DNA from: Candidatus Nanosynbacter lyticus
GTDB taxonomy: Bacteria > Patescibacteriota > Saccharimonadia > Saccharimonadales > Saccharimonadaceae
Reading direction: 5' to 3'
DNA length: 32,000 nt
Assembly: GCF_000803625.1 (NCBI RefSeq)
Contig: NZ_CP007496.1
Location: 210,001-242,000 of the forward strand
This document shows, one piece after another, positions 14,009 through 31,680 of the stretch. Each line of letters opens with the position of its first letter. The stretch's first letter is position 1. A model generated the notes under the pieces. That model was not told the DNA's origin and did no database searches. It was given only the letters and a program-made list of their open reading frames with translations. A program made the translations under genes and the position numbers.

Positions 14009-15293
14009 TTCAGTCGCTGGGAAACACCAGACTTCCACGCAATCGGTTCGCAGTCACCGACCGATGTACCAGATTGTGCTGTATATGGGTCTTTTATTGC
14101 TGCTCGGACTAATCGTTATGTATGCACTGGGGCCACAACGCGCCAATGTGATGAATTACGCTTATGGCACGAATTATAGTGATACTTATTTTTTTGGTAA
14201 GCAGTTAACTAGTGTTGCTATAGCTGTTGTGGCGTTTTCGGTATTTTATTTTGTACCGTATAAGTGGTTTACGGGCGAGCGTTCAAAATATGTTCTTTGG
14301 GCGGGATTCCTATCGTGCGTCTTGTTGTTTTTGCTGGGCTCGCTACTGCATTTGTCATTGGCCAAAGAAACTAACGGCGCGTATAGATGGTTTTATTTGG
14401 GTGGACTAGGTAGTTTTCAGCCGTCAGAATTGTTAAAGTATGGCGTTTTATTATTCTTGGCGGGCTTTTTGGGGCGGCGTGCTTCTCAGGGGAAAATAAA
14501 TGATGTTCATGAAACACTCGTTCCGGTTGGGGTTATTTCTGCACTTTCGCTGCTGATGATTGTAGTTTTACAGAAAGACTTAGGTACTGGCGTGTCTTTG
14601 ATAGCCATAGTGTTATCAATGATAATAGTGTCTGGTGTGGATTGGAAAATAATTGGTAAGATTTTAGGAGTGGTGGCATTTTGTGGGTTAGTATTGATAT
14701 TTACCTCACCGCACCGAATTGAGCGGGTTATGACATTTATTCAGGGTGATAGTCATAAAACCGCAAGTGGTCAAGAGGACAAAAATTATCACATCCAGCA
14801 GGCTAGAATTGCAATTGGTTCGGGAGGTATTCTGGGGCTTGGTATTGGCAAAAGTGTTCAGGCGACCGGATATCTTCCAGAAGCGATTAATGACTCAATC
14901 TTCGCTGTTATGGGAGAGACATTTGGCTTTGTTGGTCTGATGGCTATATTGGCGTTATTTACTGCGCTGCTATTATCGATTTTACACGTAGCGGCGCGAC
15001 TGCCAGACACAACGCTGCGGTTGATTGTGGCTGGGATCTTTGGCTGGATTGCTTCACATGTAGTTTTAAATATTGCTGCAATGACAGGACTAATGCCGCT
15101 GACAGGAATTCCTTTGCCATTATTAAGTTATGGTGGTACAAGCATGCTGTTTATCGCTGCGGCACTCGGTTTAGTTTTTCAAATTTCCAAATATACGTCA
15201 CATAAAGTATTAGAGGAGGGTGAAGGTGGTCAAGATCTTAGCGGTCGGCGGCGGCTCAGGCGGACACGTTACGCCGGTGGTAGCCGTATTTAG
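14001..15293 (+). CDS. ftsW: SEDS-family peptidoglycan glycosyltransferase FtsW/RodA
   Basis: Polytopic membrane protein with SEDS motifs (DLGTG, PEAINDSIFAVMGETFGFVG, PLPLLSYGGTSM). TTG start behind AGGGGGG, overlapping the mraY stop by 8 nt. The start is uncertain; the alternative is ATG 14064. Confidence 0.85.
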   Translation: MRNSVAGKHQTSTQSVRSHRPMYQIVLYMGLLLLLGLIVMYALGPQRANVMNYAYGTNYSDTYFFGKQLTSVAIAVVAFSVFYFVPYKWFTGERSKYVLWAGFLSCVLLFLLGSLLHLSLAKETNGAYRWFYLGGLGSFQPSELLKYGVLLFLAGFLGRRASQGKINDVHETLVPVGVISALSLLMIVVLQKDLGTGVSLIAIVLSMIIVSGVDWKIIGKILGVVAFCGLVLIFTSPHRIERVMTFIQGDSHKTASGQEDKNYHIQQARIAIGSGGILGLGIGKSVQATGYLPEAINDSIFAVMGETFGFVGLMAILALFTALLLSILHVAARLPDTTLRLIVAGIFGWIASHVVLNIAAMTGLMPLTGIPLPLLSYGGTSMLFIAAALGLVFQISKYTSHKVLEEGEGGQDLSGRRRLRRTRYAGGSRI

Positions 15294-23872: not shown

Positions 23873-24925
23873 TTAAACAGCTTCGTCAAAAACGTAAGTA
23901 GCTTTCGCGACACGCTTGAACTGCGGTTTTGACTGAAGGTTGAGCAGAATAGTGGTTTCTTTAACCTGCCGCTTATCAAGGACTTGACGAACAATTTCAT
24001 CACGGTGCAATGGAGACTCAGAGTTTTTCAAGATATCGGTAATAATATCAGAGACGGTACCGCGACTATATCCCCAGCTGGCCAGTGCATAAATACCACG
24101 CCCAATCAGCACAAATCGACTATCTTTAATAAGTTCATTGTGAATCGCCTGAGTAGTAACGCTTCGTCGGTTAAACTCGCTGTCTCGAATACCTTTGGCA
24201 ATGTCAGAAAAGTGCATCGGTGAGCCGTTGGTGTCAAGAACGACATAGATTTTATCGCGGATGTTCTTTGGGTTAACTGATGGCCATTTAGCTAGTCCCC
24301 ATTGATTGTGTAGATTAGCTAATTTTTTACTAACAGTAGCCAATGCTGCAATATTTGATGGATGTTCGTAGTCTAATTTTTTATGTAGATCTTCCGCAGT
24401 GATTGGCTCGCCATGTTTTTTAATCGTCTTAACAACTTCTTCAACTCTTACTTTAACTTGCTTTTCGTTACCCAGAGTGTCAATGGCTGCCGCTTGATAG
24501 TAGTCGTCATTTTCTGTGATGATAGTGATATTTTCCGCCAACTCTCCGATAAACGCTACACGAGAGCGGTCAATTGATGAGGCCTCCTTGCCCAGGAAAT
24601 GTGATGCTAAATCTTGTATACGGGCTACTCGACCCATTTCTGATAGGCTTGAGGTTATTTCCTTTTCTATAGCAGTAACTGACGGTAGGGTTCCTTCGCT
24701 AACAGCAACTCTAAGTCGTGTTAGGATAGACTTTTCCAGCTGACGAACTCGCTCGCGGGTGATGCCGAACATATCACCAATCATTTCTAGCGTTTCCTTC
24801 CTGTCAGACAAGCCGAATCGTCGAGAGATGATTTCCCTTTCGCGCTCTTGCGGTATTTTGGAAATAATAGTATCAATGGCAGAATTTAAGTTGTCGATTC
24901 TTTCGGTTTTTACTGTCTCGTTCAT
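23873..24925 (-). CDS. sigma-70 region-4 HTH plus C-terminal HARE-HTH domain protein
   Basis: EREIISRRFGLSDRKETLEMIGDMFGITRERVRQLEKSILTRLR is a sigma region 4 sequence. The C-terminal MHFSDIAKGIRD...IHNELIKDSRFVLIGRGIYALASWGY is HARE-HTH-like, as in the RNAP delta subunit. Confidence 0.7.
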   Translation of the reverse strand: MNETVKTERIDNLNSAIDTIISKIPQEREREIISRRFGLSDRKETLEMIGDMFGITRERVRQLEKSILTRLRVAVSEGTLPSVTAIEKEITSSLSEMGRVARIQDLASHFLGKEASSIDRSRVAFIGELAENITIITENDDYYQAAAIDTLGNEKQVKVRVEEVVKTIKKHGEPITAEDLHKKLDYEHPSNIAALATVSKKLANLHNQWGLAKWPSVNPKNIRDKIYVVLDTNGSPMHFSDIAKGIRDSEFNRRSVTTQAIHNELIKDSRFVLIGRGIYALASWGYSRGTVSDIITDILKNSESPLHRDEIVRQVLDKRQVKETTILLNLQSKPQFKRVAKATYVFDEAV

Positions 24926-25020
24926 GCTATTAGGAAAATCCTCTCTGCCTCACCACAGGTTACATTGATTAAAATATGTTTTTAATTATACAATTGCATT
25001 TGATAAATGTCAATAGGTAA

Positions 25021-25127: not shown

Positions 25128-27431
25128 CTATTTTTTCTTAGCTGTTCGCTTACGGGTTGGTTTTGCGGCTGTTTTACTTAACAATTCCAGTGCCTTTTCA
25201 TGGGTGATGGTTTTTGGATCGGTGCCCTTAGGAATTTTGGCATTTTTACTGCCGTCGGTGATATATGGACCAAAGCGACCGTTGAGGATTTTGACGCCGT
25301 CACCAAAGTCAGCGATGTTTTTCTCGGCTTCGGCCTGGAGTTTGGCGGCGTAGAGCTCGCGAGCTTTTTCTAGGGTGATGGTGTGCGGATCTTCGGGCTT
25401 GATGGAGACGAAGAGTTTGCCAACTTGGATGTACGGGCCAAAGCGGCCGATGTTGGCCTTGATGTCTTGCCCGTCTTCGGTTTGGCCGACGATGCGTGGT
25501 AGCTTAAACATTTCCAGCGCTTGCTCCAAAGTGACGGTTTCAATTTTCGCACCTTTTGGTAGCGGCGCAAAGCGTGGTTTGTCCTCGTCGTCAGTGGCGC
25601 CCAGTTGCAACATTGGGCCAAAGCGGCCAAAGCGCGCCAGGATTGGTTTGCCGGATTTTGGATCGATGCCGACTTCGCGATTGGCGCCGACTTTACTGCG
25701 GTCGATACCGCCTGATTGTTCGATCAGTTTATGAAATGGCGTGTAAAATCCGTTGAGCATGGCACTTTTAGCCAGCTCTGCGGCGGCAATTTTATCAAAT
25801 TCAGTCTCGACGTTGGCGGTAAAATCATAATCAACGATTTGCGTGAAATGGTCGGTTAAAAAGTCGGCGATTAGTTCCCCGCTTGGTGTTGGAATAAGCT
25901 TGCCGCGGGTGGAACCCGTTTTTTCCTGGACAACGTCGCGACTGACTTCTTCGCCGTTGTAACTGAGGACGATGACGTCGCGCGGCTGGCCTTCGCTGTC
26001 GCCCTTTTCGACATAGCCGCGGGTCTGTACAGTGTCGATGATAGTGGCGTAGGTGCTTGGACGGCCAATGCCGAGGTCTTCGAGCTTCTTGACCAGGGAG
26101 CCTTCGGTGTAGCGGGCCGGTGGCCGAGCGAAGGTTTGGCGGGCGGTGATGTCGTGGGTTTCGAGGGTGTCACCGGTGTGGAGCTTTGGTAAGAGTTCGT
26201 CTTTGCCGCCGCCATAGACACGCAAGAATCCGTCAAAGGTGATGACTTCACCTTTGGCTTCAAAATGTAACTTGTCATTTCCTTGTATATCTATGGAAAT
26301 TGTCGTCTTCTCTAATTTCGCTGCCGACATTTGGGATGCCAGGGTGCGGCGGCGGATGAGGTCGTAGAGTTTTTGGTCGTACTCGTTGGAAGTGACGGTT
26401 TCGCTGGTGATGTCGGTTGGACGGATGGCCTCGTGGGCTTCCTGGGCGGAGGCGGATTTGGTTTTGAATTTGCGCACGGTGGAGTAATCCGGGCCGTACA
26501 ACCGCTTGATAAAGTCGGTGGCACTGGCGATGGCCTGCCCGCTCAAATTGACCGAGTCAGTACGCATGTAGGTGATTTTACCGTCTTGGTAGAGCCGCTG
26601 GGCTGAAGCCATGGTGGCTTTGGAGCTGAAGCCGAGCTTGGCGTTGGCTTCCTGCTGTAAGGTCGAGGTCGTAAACGGTGCGGCTGGGTTGCGGGTGCCA
26701 GGAGTTTTCGAGATGTCGCTGACGGTGAATGTGGCTGGCTTGAGACTAGTTAAGAATTCATGGGCGGCCGCTTCAGAATCAAATTTCTGGTTGAGCTCAG
26801 CCTTGAACTCTTGATTGTCGTGGATGAATATGGCGGTCACCTTGAACTGTGAACTGCCCTCGAACCTCATAATTTCTCGTTCGCGTTCGACCAGTAGCCG
26901 TACTGCCGGGCTCTGGACGCGGCCAGCTGACTTGCCGCCTGGCACTTTTTGCCAGACTACCGGGCTGAGCTCAAAGCCGACCAGCCGGTCGAGGATTTGC
27001 CGTGCTTGCTGCGCCTGCACCAGATTCATGTCAACGGTGCGCGGGTTCTTGATAGCATTGGTGATGGCATCCTTAGTGATCTCGTGAAAGACGATGCGCT
27101 TGGTTGTCTCAATCGGCAAATCCAATACTTTACAGAGATGCCAAGCAATTGCCTCCCCTTCACGGTCTTCATCGGTGGCCAGCCAAACATTGTCTTTACC
27201 GACGGCCTTGACGTTTTTCTTGAGCTCGGTGATGACTTTCTTCTTCTCGGGATCAACTTCGTAGACGGCAAAAAAATCATTCGCCACATCAATTGGCGGT
27301 GTGCCGTCCTTGGTTTTTTTGACAATCGAGCGGATATGTCCCACGCTTGACAGGACATGAAAATCCTTGCCCAAATATTTCTCAATGGTTTTAGCTTTGG
27401 CTGGCGACTCGACGATAACGAGATTTTTCAT
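25128..27431 (-). CDS. topA: DNA topoisomerase I
   Basis: TOPRIM N-terminus MKNLVIVESPAKAKTIEKYLG, DEDREGEAIAWH, and active-site region ITYMRTDS. Three C-terminal GRFGPY/M repeats and no Cys4 zinc fingers. Confidence 0.95.
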   Translation of the reverse strand: MKNLVIVESPAKAKTIEKYLGKDFHVLSSVGHIRSIVKKTKDGTPPIDVANDFFAVYEVDPEKKKVITELKKNVKAVGKDNVWLATDEDREGEAIAWHLCKVLDLPIETTKRIVFHEITKDAITNAIKNPRTVDMNLVQAQQARQILDRLVGFELSPVVWQKVPGGKSAGRVQSPAVRLLVEREREIMRFEGSSQFKVTAIFIHDNQEFKAELNQKFDSEAAAHEFLTSLKPATFTVSDISKTPGTRNPAAPFTTSTLQQEANAKLGFSSKATMASAQRLYQDGKITYMRTDSVNLSGQAIASATDFIKRLYGPDYSTVRKFKTKSASAQEAHEAIRPTDITSETVTSNEYDQKLYDLIRRRTLASQMSAAKLEKTTISIDIQGNDKLHFEAKGEVITFDGFLRVYGGGKDELLPKLHTGDTLETHDITARQTFARPPARYTEGSLVKKLEDLGIGRPSTYATIIDTVQTRGYVEKGDSEGQPRDVIVLSYNGEEVSRDVVQEKTGSTRGKLIPTPSGELIADFLTDHFTQIVDYDFTANVETEFDKIAAAELAKSAMLNGFYTPFHKLIEQSGGIDRSKVGANREVGIDPKSGKPILARFGRFGPMLQLGATDDEDKPRFAPLPKGAKIETVTLEQALEMFKLPRIVGQTEDGQDIKANIGRFGPYIQVGKLFVSIKPEDPHTITLEKARELYAAKLQAEAEKNIADFGDGVKILNGRFGPYITDGSKNAKIPKGTDPKTITHEKALELLSKTAAKPTRKRTAKKK

Positions 27432-28202: not shown

Positions 28203-29072
28203 TTATCGTAATGTCCAGTTGTTTGCTCCGAGCGGCTTAATCGCGCCGTTGATTTCTAGCATAGTTAGCGCTGTGGCGAAGTCTGATGCCGATAAGCCGG
28301 AATTTTGCTGGAGCTCATCTCCGTCTCGAATTCCGCTAGAGATTAGTTTGATAATAATTGCTTCTTCTGGAGTTGAGCTTAGTGGAGCCTCGGGGCTGCT
28401 GGATTTTTGTAATTTTTCTGGGGCAATTATATTCAAAATATCATTTGCGTCTGTCACTAGATAAGCGCCCTGCTTCAGCAAGTTATTGCATCCCGCTGAG
28501 AGCGGACTGGTTATGTTGCCAGGGACAACGAATAAGTCTCTGCCCTGGTTTAAGGCGTGAGAAGCAGTATTTAAGGTGCCACTTCTCTCTGTGGCTTCAG
28601 TGATGATAATGCCATCTGCCAGCCCACTGACTAATCGATTGCGTTCTAGAAAACTCCAGCGATTTACTATTTTATTATCACCTTTCATCCACTCAGAAAT
28701 TACTGCCCCGCCTTGCCTAATTATGTCCATAGCTAGTTTATAATTGGTGCGCGGTGAGATGTCAGGTAGTTCATTGGGGACGACTGCTACCACTGTGCCA
28801 CCAGCCTCTAAAGCCGCTTTTTGAGCAATTCCATCTACTCCGAGGGCTAGTCCACTGACGATTATACAACCGGCACTTGCTAGCTCTGCGGCTAATCTCT
28901 CGGTTACTTCTTTCCCATAGGCTGAAGGCTTGCGCGAACCAACAATTGATACGATAGGTGCGTTAGCTTCTGGCAATTTTCCCATATAACATAAGCTTTT
29001 TGGAGGATTGGCAATATGTGCTAATCTCTGGGTGAAAATATGCTTATCTGGTAGAATTCTCTTGATTTCCAT
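28203..29072 (-). CDS. dprA: DNA-processing protein DprA (Smf)
   Basis: VSIVGSRKPSAYGKEVTERLAAELASAGCIIVSGLALGVDGIAQKAALEAGGTVVAVV, a Rossmann-like DprA core, plus a C-terminal winged-helix-like tail. ATG 29072 is preferred over the ORF-track GTG 29099, which lies inside the plus-strand -35 region. Confidence 0.88.
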   Translation of the reverse strand: MEIKRILPDKHIFTQRLAHIANPPKSLCYMGKLPEANAPIVSIVGSRKPSAYGKEVTERLAAELASAGCIIVSGLALGVDGIAQKAALEAGGTVVAVVPNELPDISPRTNYKLAMDIIRQGGAVISEWMKGDNKIVNRWSFLERNRLVSGLADGIIITEATERSGTLNTASHALNQGRDLFVVPGNITSPLSAGCNNLLKQGAYLVTDANDILNIIAPEKLQKSSSPEAPLSSTPEEAIIIKLISSGIRDGDELQQNSGLSASDFATALTMLEINGAIKPLGANNWTLR

Positions 29073-29092
29073 ACAAAATGTTGTGAAAAGTA

Positions 29093-29121
29093 TTGACACT
29101 TTGTCAAATGTTTGCTATAAT
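29093..29121 (+). promoter_or_regulatory. Near-consensus sigma70 promoter driving an ORF-free region
   Basis: TTGACA (29093-29098), 17-nt spacer, TGcTATAAT (29113-29121). This is the best match to consensus in the window. Confidence 0.7.
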
Positions 29122-29127
29122 CAAGGA

Positions 29128-29438
29128 CGATTGGTTAAGTAATCATTAACCAAACGCACCTTATACCCCCTATTCTAACTATATGTTAGGTTGCGCGCAA
29201 TGGCATTAAGTATTCTTACCCTCCACTTTTTGCGGTTCAACGTTACGCGCATACTAACCCCTTTAACTGCCCTTTTTCAAAGGCGACCTCTGTTAAGGTG
29301 AGCACTAAGCAGTGTTGATAATCAATCAGGCGCGGACTTTTGGAGTTTTAGTCACGACGCTTCGCCGAGACGGTAGCTCGGGTGGGTTGAAGGGTAAAAA
29401 AGCACCAGGTGATGCCCACCCTTACCTGGTGCTTTTTT
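29128..29438 (+). ncRNA. candidate structured non-coding RNA (~310 nt, family not recognised)
   Basis: Bounded by the promoter at 29093-29121 and the terminator at 29396-29438, with no plausible ORF. Perfect 8-bp hairpin at 29131-29153, 5-bp hairpin at 29175-29189, and TGCGCG (29192-29197) / CGCGCA (29246-29251). C-rich tracts at 29166-29170, 29219-29224 and 29258-29261. Confidence 0.5.
29396..29438. terminator. Bidirectional Rho-independent terminator
   Basis: AGCACCAGGT (29401-29410) / ACCTGGTGCT (29424-29433) with a 13-nt loop, flanked by A5 on the 5' side and T6 on the 3' side. It can therefore terminate both the plus-strand RNA and the minus-strand Fur-family operon. Confidence 0.8.
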
Positions 29439-29453
29439 GTTGGTAAAAATTAT

Positions 29454-29867
29454 TTACTCTTCTATAATATGTCGGCATTTTTCGCAAATACCTTCTAGCT
29501 CAAAATGATGTTTTGTGACTATAAAATTATACTTTTTGCCAATGTAGTCTACGAGTTTTTCGAGTTCTTTCGGTTGTATGGGCTCGGCATTTTGGCAATT
29601 GATACAGTATAAGTGGTGATGATGTGGTATGAATGGCTCGGCTAATTCGTAATAGTTTTTCCAGCCAATGTATATTGTGTTAATTATTTTTAGTCTATCA
29701 AATATGATAAGGGTGCGATAAATACTAGTGCGGTTAATGTTTTTGTAGTTTTTTGCAATATCTCCGACGGTAAGAGGTATTTCTGAATTTTTTAGTATAT
29801 CGAAAATCTGCTGGCGAGGCTTTGTCAGGCGAAAACCGTGCTGCTCGAATATTTCGCTTAGTGTCAT
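29454..29867 (-). CDS. Fur-family metalloregulator (Zur/PerR/Fur-like)
   Basis: N-terminal winged helix (RLTKPRQQIFDIL...TSIYRTLIIFDRLKII), HHHHLYCINCQN and a C-terminal CEKC: the Fur-family metal sites. Confidence 0.85.
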   Translation of the reverse strand: MTLSEIFEQHGFRLTKPRQQIFDILKNSEIPLTVGDIAKNYKNINRTSIYRTLIIFDRLKIINTIYIGWKNYYELAEPFIPHHHHLYCINCQNAEPIQPKELEKLVDYIGKKYNFIVTKHHFELEGICEKCRHIIEE

Positions 29868-29912: not shown

Positions 29913-30647
29913 CTATATTCCCATTAGTTCGTATGGGTATTTAGGCTGGCTTATCTTAGTTATGTTCGGCTGAGTAATCACGTATTCAGCTTGGCCATTA
30001 ATGACTTTCTGGGATAGCTTACCCTTGACTATCAGCCAGGTACCGTCTGGGTAATCTACTGAGAATCTCTTCTCGACGATGATTTTTACTGGAACACTAT
30101 CAACAGCACAGCAACTTATGACATAGCGCGCAATGTAAAAGTAATCGTATCCGTAGTTTTTTAGTAGGTCATTTGAAACGAAGCCAGTGATAGTAATATC
30201 TTTATTATCGAAGTAAGAGGCTTGTTTGCAGGAATTTATGGCAGTTTTCCAGCGGTTTATTGAGATTGTGGAGCTATTTTCTGTTGGTTTTGGAATTTCG
30301 CAGCGACTCTCAGCTTCAATAATTGCAGGATTCTCTCTTTGGGCGAGGCTGCTTGGCGATAGCGTCTTTGGCGGTAGTGTATAGCCGATTGTTAGGATAA
30401 TAATCGCCAAGTAGGAGCTGACCTTTACTCTCCTTAAATTAAAGACAGATCCGTTAAGGGACTGTCTGCTTTTAAATTGCAACATTATATCAATAAGAAA
30501 AAGTGCAATTCCAACTATACTGATTATAATGGCAAATTGATGATAACGTGGATGAGTGTAAAAACCCAGATGATCGCGGCTGGCTAATAGGAGGATATAG
30601 CCACAGACCAAAATCCCGCCCATCGACCTTAGTAAATTAGCGAACAT
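29913..30647 (-). CDS. DUF1980/TIGR03943-family membrane protein (partner of the COG0701 permease)
   Basis: Two or three N-terminal TM helices, then a soluble domain with the CC motif (YVISCCAVDSVPVKI). It overlaps the upstream permease stop by 11 nt. Confidence 0.75.
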   Translation of the reverse strand: MFANLLRSMGGILVCGYILLLASRDHLGFYTHPRYHQFAIIISIVGIALFLIDIMLQFKSRQSLNGSVFNLRRVKVSSYLAIIILTIGYTLPPKTLSPSSLAQRENPAIIEAESRCEIPKPTENSSTISINRWKTAINSCKQASYFDNKDITITGFVSNDLLKNYGYDYFYIARYVISCCAVDSVPVKIIVEKRFSVDYPDGTWLIVKGKLSQKVINGQAEYVITQPNITKISQPKYPYELMGI

Positions 30648-31680
30648 ATAAGTTAACTCCCACGCCCGCCATGAAAGACAGCGCGAATATTATTAGTACA
30701 ATTGTTGCTATAAAGTGCCAACGGAAAGTAGTCTTCATAAGTATAATCATTTTTATGTCTACCATTGGTCCGGATAATAAGAATGACAAGATTGAGCCGG
30801 CAGTAAAACTACGTGCATAAGCTAAGGCAAAAAACGCGTCTATGCTTGAGCATATTGAAACAACAAAGCTGAGGATGATCATGGCGATAACTGACAGAAA
30901 AATGTCACCACCGACGGTGTTAATGATGAATCGTGGTACAAATACTTGGGTGGCTGCGGCGATGCTAGCACCTATGACTAGTATGGTAAATAACTGCCAG
31001 AACTCGTTGCGTGAGTTGTCAAATATTTTTAGAAAAGACGAATCGTTTTTATGAGCGTGGCAATACTCTTTAAAGTCTGGATTAAGTATAGAATCTTCTT
31101 TGAATAAACTAACAATGAAAGCTGTTATTTGGACGATAATCAGCGCAAAAATGACTCTCCACCAGACCATCTGCGGCTGAAAACTGAAGGCCGTCATAGT
31201 AGCGACGATGGTTATGGGGTTGAGGATTGGTGCGGCAAATAGAAAACTGATGACGTCAGCAGGTTTAAGGCCCTGCGCCATCAGGCTGCGTGCAACCGGC
31301 ACATTGCCACATTCACAGACCGGCAAGGCTATTCCAAGCGTTGACAGCACAATTCGCCTGAGGAAGGTATTTTTTGGTAGTATCTTGAGCAGTTTGTCTG
31401 ATGGTAAAAATTTTCTAATTAGTGCCGATACAATTATTCCCAGTAGCAGAAATGGTGTAGCTTCGACGATTACACTCAGTGTGAGCGTAAGAAAATCTTG
31501 AAGCGATGGCAGTAGTTTTGTAAACAAATCTACAAGTTCTCCATTAACTAACATAGTGCTAAATTTTGAACTGAGGTAATATATAGTAATCACAAAAATC
31601 CCAAAAACAATCCAGTTTATTAATTCCTGGTTGGCGTATAGTATTTTCTTTAAGCGGCCGTCTGATAGCTTGCGCACCAT
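30637..31680 (-). CDS. COG0701/UPF0718-type permease
   Basis: Polytopic membrane protein with the characteristic ALPVCECGNVPVARSL motif. Paired with DUF1980, as in the two-component permease complexes described in streptococci. Confidence 0.8.
   Translation of the reverse strand: MVRKLSDGRLKKILYANQELINWIVFGIFVITIYYLSSKFSTMLVNGELVDLFTKLLPSLQDFLTLTLSVIVEATPFLLLGIIVSALIRKFLPSDKLLKILPKNTFLRRIVLSTLGIALPVCECGNVPVARSLMAQGLKPADVISFLFAAPILNPITIVATMTAFSFQPQMVWWRVIFALIIVQITAFIVSLFKEDSILNPDFKEYCHAHKNDSSFLKIFDNSRNEFWQLFTILVIGASIAAATQVFVPRFIINTVGGDIFLSVIAMIILSFVVSICSSIDAFFALAYARSFTAGSILSFLLSGPMVDIKMIILMKTTFRWHFIATIVLIIFALSFMAGVGVNLYVR

Follow-up and report, generated by a model that had tools for sequence, protein, structure and literature searches.

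A predicted stand-alone structured RNA of Candidatus Nanosynbacter lyticus, very probably a member of a new RNA family conserved in Saccharibacteria

The 32-kb stretch of Candidatus Nanosynbacter lyticus (TM7x-type) DNA analyzed here, referred to as the window and used for all coordinates, contains a 355-bp gap between the genes for a Fur-family protein and DprA, in which a candidate RNA gene lies on the plus strand, opposite to the neighboring genes. The initial annotation of this DNA had proposed an independent, structured non-coding transcript at this place, and the present analysis agrees with it: the plus strand folds with −102.4 kcal/mol (z = −4.39, none of 100 shuffles being as good), the changes in homologues are compensatory, and there is no match to a housekeeping RNA. 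It is close to certain that the locus represents a real, conserved and structured RNA family of the Saccharibacteria that is new, and the window gene is predicted to be its Nanosynbacter lyticus copy, a stand-alone gene with its own promoter and terminator. Structured non-coding RNAs restricted to one lineage are as such already known; the family itself is absent from Rfam 15 and the searchable literature. The features that define it, namely, the promoter and terminator, the helices P3, P3c, and P4 (helix names P1–P5 are those of this analysis), a UACC(C)UCC loop, and adjacency to dprA/topA, were all found in the window. With regard to mechanism, base pairing through exposed C-rich loops is proposed only tentatively, and the explanation as a whole is given about 50%, as a compromise between the near certainty of the family and the much lower confidence in this mechanism.

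Homologues were collected by scanning GTDB species genomes anchored on the DprA alignment, followed by nhmmer and direct reading of the dprA upstream regions, and by scanning metagenome contigs with a pattern derived from two invariant motifs, which gave at least 120 loci. From the species-genome and metagenome loci, 108 distinct RNAs with lengths of 253–611 nt were cut out. The species scan comprised 24 Saccharibacteria-type loci, one cut off in the promoter (L023), one without the RNA (L049), and 22 with it, i.e., of the 23 Saccharibacteria species genomes with a readable dprA upstream region, 22 have the RNA. It was found upstream of dprA even where DprA identity drops to 36%. Three sequence types were distinguished: type A, Nanosynbacter-like; type B, from environmental Saccharimonadales; and type C, from animal-gut genomes. 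All 108 delimited homologues are preceded by a TTGAC-type −35 element with a 16–18-nt spacer, nearly all have a TGnTAnnnT-type extended −10 element, and each ends in a hairpin followed by a T-run. The homologous regions were found to be conserved and covarying across the Saccharibacteria sampled. The covariance models described below gave no match upstream of dprA in other phyla of the candidate phyla radiation (CPR), nor in other bacteria, and the dprA upstream regions of these organisms have no comparable intergenic gap. One distant variant, L045:2060-2401 (minus strand) of the Saccharibacteria isolate STL-PAT11, was recognized by eye only. It shares the layout of the family, with GUACCU and a long P3 in addition to a strong promoter; CCUAAA/UUUAGG closes its loop ACUCACCCUCC, and CCCUUUCAUG/CAUGAAAGGG form its P4. 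It has neither the CCCACCC terminator loop nor any GGUGGG, and both covariance models miss it.

In Nanosynbacter relatives with a DprA 87–89% identical to that of the window, the intergenic RNA region is ∼95% identical. The few changes lie in hairpins and are compensatory, including G·U pairs valid only on the plus strand, for example, UUGGUUAA/UUAACCAA to UUGGUUAG/CUAAUCAA, GCAC/GUGU to GUAC/GUAU, and GCACC/GGUGC to GCGUC/GGCGC. As the RNA region outconserves the flanking DprA and its changes compensate, the conservation is far beyond chance. The plus strand is identified as the RNA strand because the G·U pairs in P1, P3, P4, and the terminator would be C·A on the minus strand; the minus-strand fold has a z of −2.15.

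For comparative analysis, the RNA was split into two covariance models, R1 for the 5′ domain and R2 for the 3′ domain. R1 was built from 42 diverse 5′ domains, aligned 80 RNAs, and scores the window at 100.2 bits (29154–29270). In the 80 RNAs, 95.0% of the cells were standard pairs and 19 of the 22 pairs showed double changes; none of 500 shuffles reached any observed measure, and sliding the 3′ partners by 1–3 columns left 29–46% pairing. The long helix P3, which carries P3b and P3c and spans 29192–29251 on the plus strand (29192–29202 with 29241–29251), is supported by covariation. Together with its extension, it has double changes at 14 of 17 pairs and 96.8% of the cells paired, compared with 29–46% in the slid controls and 0/500 shuffles. 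The TGCGCG/CGCGCA pairing noticed earlier in the window sequence proved to be part of this helix. The P3c hairpin (29208–29228, plus strand) consists of a stem AAGU/ACUU and a 13-nt loop, AUUCUUACCCUCC, carrying the invariant UACCCUCC. This loop motif, at least 97% identical in the 80 RNAs, reads UACC(C)UCC, with UACCUCC in gut types and UACCCUCC elsewhere, and its unpaired probability in single-sequence ensembles of 104 RNAs, the source of all such values given here, is 0.91. The CCCUCC tract at 29219–29224, correctly expected to be unpaired, lies in the exposed loop of P3c, which is invariant in all homologues. The stem covaries, with the variants ACGU/ACGU, GGU/ACC, CGUGGU/ACCGCG, and CCUAAA/UUUAGG (L045). 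Identity of at least 97% across the alignments was also observed for UACCCUCCAC, GUUAG, CUAAC, CCUUUAA, and GCCCACCC.

Upstream of P3, the perfect 8-bp hairpin at 29131–29153 on the plus strand, already seen in the initial annotation, is a real helix, P1 (UUGGUUAA/UUAACCAA), with compensatory changes that include a plus-only G·U pair. A leader hairpin of at least 6 bp was found in 107 of the 108 homologues despite 96 distinct leader sequences. It is followed by a conserved single strand, ACGCACCUUAUACCCCCUAUU (29154–29174, plus strand), which is nearly invariant in types A and B and carries in them the essentially invariant GCACCUUAUACCCCC. No covarying partner of this segment was found in the family alignments; its unpaired probability is 0.55–0.65 and that of the 5′ C-run 0.65. 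The CCCCC tract at 29166–29170, likewise proposed to be unpaired, lies within this conserved stretch, which has no covariation-supported partner. In the adjoining CUAAC-UAUAU-GUUAG (29175–29189, plus strand), GUUAG at 29185–89 can pair either with the preceding CUAAC (P2) or with CUAAC at 29254–58 (P3 extension). P2, the CTAAC/GTTAG hairpin suggested earlier, is 97.6% paired and conserved, but it shows no covariation and competes with the downstream CUAAC. The P3 extension covaries in gut types (AUUGC/GCAAU and GUUGC/GCAAC), and L105 has no 5′ CUAAC. Since the exact place of large insertions is between CUAAC and GUUAG, both pairings of GUUAG may form. An insertion of ∼170 nt was observed at this point in L141 and one of ∼180 nt inside P3 in L188; it is evident from these sequences that the RNA can accommodate large insertions at certain defined positions.

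The 3′ domain was evaluated with R2, which aligned 93 hits, some of them local and the P4 figures possibly inflated; 94.9% of the cells were paired, 29 of 31 pairs showed double changes, and the window scores 75.4 bits at 29252–29437. Taken over P3, P3c, P4, P5, and the terminator stem, all strongly supported by covariation, ∼95% of the cells pair, as against 25–50% in slid controls. A motif-anchored recount upheld the covariation of P4, with CCCUUUAAC/GUUGAAGGG as the common pairing. The P4 5′ strand CCCUUUAAC (29259–67) directly follows the CUAAC that serves as the 3′ partner of GUUAG, the two together spanning 29254–29267, and the 3′ strand GUUGAAGGG is located at 29386–29394 (both on the plus strand), with independent double changes between the strands. 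Variants include GCCUUUAAC/GUUGAAGGC (GCC../..GGC, four RNAs) and CCCUUUAAG/CUU(A/G)AAGGG (10 RNAs), along with the gut-type pairings CCCUAUAAC/GUUAUAGGG, CCCUCUAAC/GUUAGAGGG, and CCCCAUAAC/GUUGUGGGG; a U·G pair in P4 is valid on the plus strand only. The unpaired probability of the 5′ strand is 0.30. The third C-rich tract taken as unpaired, CCCC at 29258–61, is engaged instead, since C29258 ends the CUAAC strand and 29259–61 begin the P4 5′ strand; two of the three C-rich tracts are thus exposed.

The domain enclosed by P4 (29268–29385, plus strand) is variable, being ∼60 nt in the shortest homologues and far longer in others. In the window, it includes a hairpin with UUUUGGAGUUUU in its loop (∼29338–29349) and the CCGAG/CUCGG hairpin, which was pointed out earlier and turned out to be lineage-specific. 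The first of these has a conserved U-rich loop, UUU(U/A)UGGAGUUUU, on covarying stems, and occurs in ∼30% of the RNAs, both types A and B being represented; besides the window, it was observed in L104, L123, L128, L139, L185, L193, L195, L201, and L209. In short forms, an inner helix, P5, covaries. There (e.g., in L198, L111, and L138), GGACCUCC pairs with GAGGUGGGUC, an internal duplex resembling a Shine-Dalgarno:anti-Shine-Dalgarno pair, and the 5′ strand of P5 resembles the P3c loop.

The RNA ends in an intrinsic terminator (29402–29438, plus strand) with a 10-bp stem, GCACCAGGTG/TACCTGGTGC (29402–11 with 29423–32), preceded by A6 and followed by T6. Double changes were observed at each of the 10 stem pairs, with 94% of the cells paired. 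Its 11-nt loop AUGCCCACCCU (in DNA letters, ATGCCCACCCT) carries the invariant GCCCACCC and is at least 97% conserved, with an unpaired probability of 0.83. At the other end, the −35 hexamer TTGACA (29093–29098, plus strand) forms the left half of the palindrome TTGACACTTTGTCAA (29093–29107) and is separated by a 17-nt spacer from the extended −10 element TGCTATAAT (29113–29121, plus strand), giving a 12/12 match to the sigma-70 hexamers plus the TG extension. The predicted transcript of ∼311 nt extends from 29128 to 29438 on the plus strand, with its start taken from promoter geometry and its end from the T-run. The coordinates and strings in the initial annotation for the promoter, hairpins, C-tracts, GGGTGGG, AAGGGT, and terminator were all exact, and its ranking of the promoter as the strongest in the window was essentially right. 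There are two 12/12 matches in the 32 kb, tied in their hexamers, and only that of the RNA has the TG extension. The other, on the minus strand at 25013–24985 (TTGACA, 17 nt, TATAAT, without TG), lies between the end of topA and a 350-amino-acid (aa) open reading frame (ORF) at 23873–24925, ∼60 nt upstream of the ATG of this ORF.

The mechanism considered here, put forward with reserve, is that of a base-pairing RNA. The RNA would be abundant and act in trans, which is probable in view of its consensus promoter, and its invariant, exposed C-rich elements would serve as recognition surfaces. The C-rich loops would pair with sequences of the GGAGG(G)U type, either Shine-Dalgarno-like sites or a conserved cellular RNA, and the RNA would in this way mimic the anti-Shine-Dalgarno tail of 16S rRNA, occupying or titrating G-rich sites. 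Pairing to Shine-Dalgarno-like sequences is the simplest reading because ACCUCC is common to the P3c loop and the 16S tail. Exposed and conserved C-rich motifs, as known from small RNAs (sRNAs) with C-rich loops, are indeed present: UACCCUCC and GCCCACCC are both at least 97% conserved, with the high unpaired probabilities given above (0.91 and 0.83).

Several observations weigh against base pairing. The initial annotation had drawn attention to the C-rich tracts as possible binders of ribosome-binding sites, but RNAduplex predictions for the three C-rich elements at the 28 translation-initiation regions of the window were no better than at random windows, and the best duplexes in these 28 regions were formed with generic Shine-Dalgarno sites. 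The 5′ end of topA showed no conserved complementarity to the P3c loop in 125 loci. Pairing of this loop to the topA codons for VESP was tried as well and rejected: one genome shows GUGGAGAGU, and the codons vary freely in the 125 loci. The genes of the window look mostly leaderless, leaving few Shine-Dalgarno sites to bind. In ∼30% of the RNAs, an intramolecular contact with an internal UGGAG loop could keep the P3c loop occupied; such a kissing contact of UGGAG with the exactly complementary CUCCA of the P3c loop is possible on sequence grounds and not universal. The multi-helix architecture of 250–610 nt, conserved across an entire class, looks unlike that of typical base-pairing sRNAs and closer to that of an RNA with a housekeeping or protein-binding function; in its size and the depth of its conservation, the RNA suits a housekeeping ribonucleoprotein no less well than base pairing. 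Finally, expression, transcript ends, and abundance are read from the DNA sequence.

With respect to translation starts, most of the 28 larger ORFs of the window were observed to have a TAnnnT box 6–8 nt before the ATG and no Shine-Dalgarno sequence (e.g., 2440, 5905, 9737, 25128–27431 topA, and 30637–31680), and clear Shine-Dalgarno sites occur mainly at internal cistrons, e.g., at 15220, 9077, and 48. Leaderless mRNAs thus seem, from these start regions, to dominate in the window. Many topA genes of Saccharibacteria likewise look leaderless.

The foremost alternative to base pairing, itself only tentatively entertained, is a housekeeping ribonucleoprotein or protein-sequestering RNA, in which the loops and the single strand would bind a conserved protein or machine, e.g., RNA polymerase, the ribosome, or a KH-type RNA-binding protein, as in 6S, Ms1, and CsrB, instead of pairing with RNAs. 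It accords with a consensus, constitutive-looking promoter in every lineage, with sequence and architecture conserved class-wide, with a size of 250–610 nt, and with the fact that RNA targets were sought in the window start regions and the topA 5′ ends and none were found. Against it, only dprA/topA are consistently adjacent, the covariation-supported fold is made of separate helices instead of the 6S rod with a central bubble, and the Rfam models of 6S and related RNAs gave no match. A related and rather doubtful proposal is that of a class-wide, essential-type housekeeping RNA specific to Saccharibacteria, in which the invariant anti-Shine-Dalgarno-like loop and the other C-rich elements would interact with the translation machinery or with internal cistrons bearing Shine-Dalgarno sites, the mRNAs translated by these organisms otherwise being mostly leaderless; if true, the CPR would have a novel type of RNA acting globally in translation or associated with the ribosome.

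A mainly cis-acting role, in which the strong transcription unit, directed against the flow of its neighbors, would shield dprA-topA from read-through coming from upstream, compete with the overlapping promoter of dprA, or supply the topA operon with negative supercoils, the RNA product being secondary, is improbable, even though the genomic context offers several points in its favor. On the minus strand of the window, the neighbors are the genes for a permease, a DUF1980 protein, and Fur, followed by dprA, a CDP-alcohol phosphatidyltransferase gene ("pgsA"), and topA. The window DprA is 100% identical to a protein named by NCBI as from Candidatus Nanosynbacter lyticus, and many contigs from human oral metagenomes encode the exact Fur protein of the window in an identical gene order. 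Among the metagenome matches listed, dprA and/or topA lie upstream on the opposite strand in 102 of 120 loci, and most of the remaining contigs are too short to show the neighbors of the RNA; in the species genomes, it adjoins dprA and/or topA wherever it occurs. Eleven loci among the matches listed have topA without dprA upstream, at less than 500 nt in L156, L178, L190, L192, and L205 and at 1.3–2.4 kb in L111, L184, and L215. In the gut-type loci L027, L029, L030, L035, L037, and L038, topA was observed to be inverted relative to Nanosynbacter and to lie immediately downstream of the RNA, whose strand it shares, with dprA divergent upstream. This topA lies behind the full RNA terminator and, by sequence reading, has its own promoter. 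The inversion has left the RNA between dprA and topA. The linkage is very persistent, which may come from function or from slow rearrangement, either being compatible with it.

The promoter region was also taken into account for a cis-acting role, since in Nanosynbacter-like genomes the −35 hexamers stand back to back in the palindrome, with a leaderless dprA geometry. In the window (29093–29107 and 29070–29084), the palindrome TTGACACTTTGTCAA contains a minus-strand TTGACA, behind which come 17 nt of spacer, a −10 element that is weak (ACAACA), 6 nt, and the ATG of dprA; the predicted dprA promoter has the geometry of a leaderless mRNA and stands back to back with that of the RNA, the two overlapping. 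Many Nanosynbacter-like homologues also have the palindrome TTGACAnnnTGTCAA, which, placed at the RNA and dprA promoters, could be an operator. The terminator is bidirectional: as A6 lies upstream of the stem, it can, to judge from its sequence, also terminate the convergent Fur operon. A purely cis-acting role, however, would not keep ∼50 covarying base pairs and invariant loops class-wide.

It was also suggested in the initial annotation that GGGUGGG and AAGGGU pair with the terminator loop, resembling a riboswitch expression platform with conditional read-through antisense to the Fur/permease operon. The complementarity is present in the window sequence and the terminator loop is invariant, but this explanation is very unlikely on several counts. 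AAGGGU (29390–95) is not free for the loop because it belongs to the covarying 3′ strand of P4. GGGUGGG, located beside P4, is largely engaged in local helices (unpaired probability 0.20); many RNAs with an unchanged loop have another sequence in its place, e.g., GGGGUGCG, CGGUGAG, or ACGGGG, and gut types lack GGGUGGG altogether. A pseudoknot of the terminator loop with GGGUGGG or GAGGUGGG has no comparative support, the sides being invariant or already paired; as the terminator loop never varies, this pairing lies beyond covariation scoring. The T6 terminator and its 10-bp stem are kept everywhere. A riboswitch platform would need a regulated downstream gene, and none is conserved: from lineage to lineage a different gene follows, mostly in convergent orientation (Fur or others in types A and B), and only in gut genomes is this gene topA. 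For the same reason, read-through antisense to the Fur operon is not a conserved feature.

A highly divergent universal RNA (RNase P RNA, tmRNA, signal recognition particle (SRP) RNA, or 6S RNA) missed by the Rfam models would be in keeping with the size and the strong promoter; it is nevertheless given very little weight. Rfam 15 at gathering thresholds gave no match in the whole window, permissive thresholds (E ≤ 10) on 28950–29600 returned only terminator-driven noise, and a scan of the locus on both strands as well as of 20 homologous loci revealed no known housekeeping RNA. ARAGORN found no tRNA or tmRNA in the window. These results bear out the failure of the initial annotation to recognize tmRNA, RNase P, SRP, or 6S signatures. 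The plus strand also has no P4/CR-I, CR-IV, GGAA/AGCA, or T-arm/CCA signatures, and its fold differs. Considered singly, tmRNA was rejected since ARAGORN at 50–70% thresholds gave noise only and no Rfam tmRNA match appeared at E ≤ 10. RNase P RNA (type A/B) had no Rfam match on either strand at E ≤ 10, nor in the 20 homologous loci; its P4 strands, GGAAAGUCC and ACAGAA..GGCUUA, are absent from the plus strand, and the minus strand is excluded by the G·U pairs. SRP RNA had no Rfam match, and the helix 8 GNRA and AGCA/GGAA motifs are absent from the sequence. 6S RNA is at odds with the fold of separate helices (P1, P3/P3c, the P4 domain, and the terminator) and the length range of 253–611 nt, and again there was no Rfam match.

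A minus-strand RNase P RNA deserved separate attention, as AAAGUCCGCGCC, ACAGAGGUCGCC, GGGUAAGAAUAC, and AAUAGGGGGUAUAAGGUGC were seen by eye in RNase P-like order. It was rejected: no Rfam match was obtained at E ≤ 10, only AAUAGGGGGUAUAAGGUGC is conserved in the family, and the G·U pairs would be C·A. The reverse complement of 29154–29174, GAAUAGGGGGUAUAAGGUGC, closely resembles the J5/15-P15-L15 region of Escherichia coli RNase P RNA (AAAUAGGGGUUCAUAAGGUAC); this point in favor of a divergent universal RNA may be coincidence. L15 of RNase P RNA is the loop that binds the CCA end of tRNA. No RNase P RNA was found in the 1.3 Mb of fetched loci, where it was sought for complementarity to the 5′ single strand.

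A small protein is practically dismissed: two short ORFs do exist in the gap, 29191–29301 (36 aa, TTG start) and 29312–29446 (44 aa, GTG start), so that the statement of no credible ORF needs this correction, but it holds otherwise, since single-base indels in close relatives shift both frames, no reading frame is kept across the 108 homologues (the invariant motif falls into the longest ORF in each of the three frames or lies outside it), and the substitutions compensate base pairs and are not codon-like.

Other orphan families were excluded in the same manner. The raiA motif, OLE, ROOL, GOLLD, and other Rfam orphans had no gathering-level match in the window and the 20 homologous loci, permissive thresholds (E ≤ 10) brought up nothing relevant, and membership in the RsaE/RoxS family is opposed by the absence of an Rfam match and by a length of 253–611 nt compared with ∼100 nt. 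Three conserved motifs of the RNA, in DNA and RNA spelling, were found in no searchable paper in a relevant context. According to a 2022 TM7x transcriptome preprint, there was no validated small RNA in the TM7x genome, and a survey of 224 structured-RNA motifs gives for this phylum only the lysM-TM7 motif.

Being backed by covariation, preceded by a consensus promoter, and conserved across the Saccharibacteria sampled, the predicted RNA is probably one of the major non-coding RNAs of this group. In a genome of ∼705 kb, it is costly to retain a non-coding gene of 355 bp, as nearly all lineages sampled do, and hence the RNA must matter. The family would add a new Rfam entry and allow hundreds of genomes to be annotated better. 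The invariant anti-Shine-Dalgarno-like loop offers a concrete handle and is the obvious first mutation; a deletion or loop mutant is feasible as TM7x and its relatives are transformable (PMC10633639).

Among known systems, the 3′ tail of 16S rRNA, with its anti-Shine-Dalgarno sequence ..CACCUCCUU, shares ACCUCC with the P3c loop; here, however, the motif lies in the closed hairpin loop of a separate RNA, and a functional relation is conjecture. RsaE/RoxS and the C-rich-loop sRNAs of Firmicutes are similar in being stand-alone, with their own promoter and terminator, and in exposing C-rich motifs complementary to Shine-Dalgarno-type sequences. The present RNA differs from RsaE/RoxS in being three to five times longer, in its conserved multi-domain fold and class-level conservation, in having no sequence or covariance-model similarity to them, and in a host whose mRNAs appear mostly leaderless. 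With 6S RNA and Ms1, it has in common a very strong promoter, non-coding nature, conservation over large distances, and a length of a few hundred nt; unlike them, it has no long irregular hairpin with a central bubble and no Rfam match. The raiA motif, OLE, ROOL, and GOLLD differ in taxon, consensus, and architecture and give no covariance-model match, yet they resemble it in being lineage-restricted, in their elaborate structure with invariant nucleotides, and in a conserved gene neighborhood. The raiA motif lies near the competence gene comFC, as this RNA lies near dprA.

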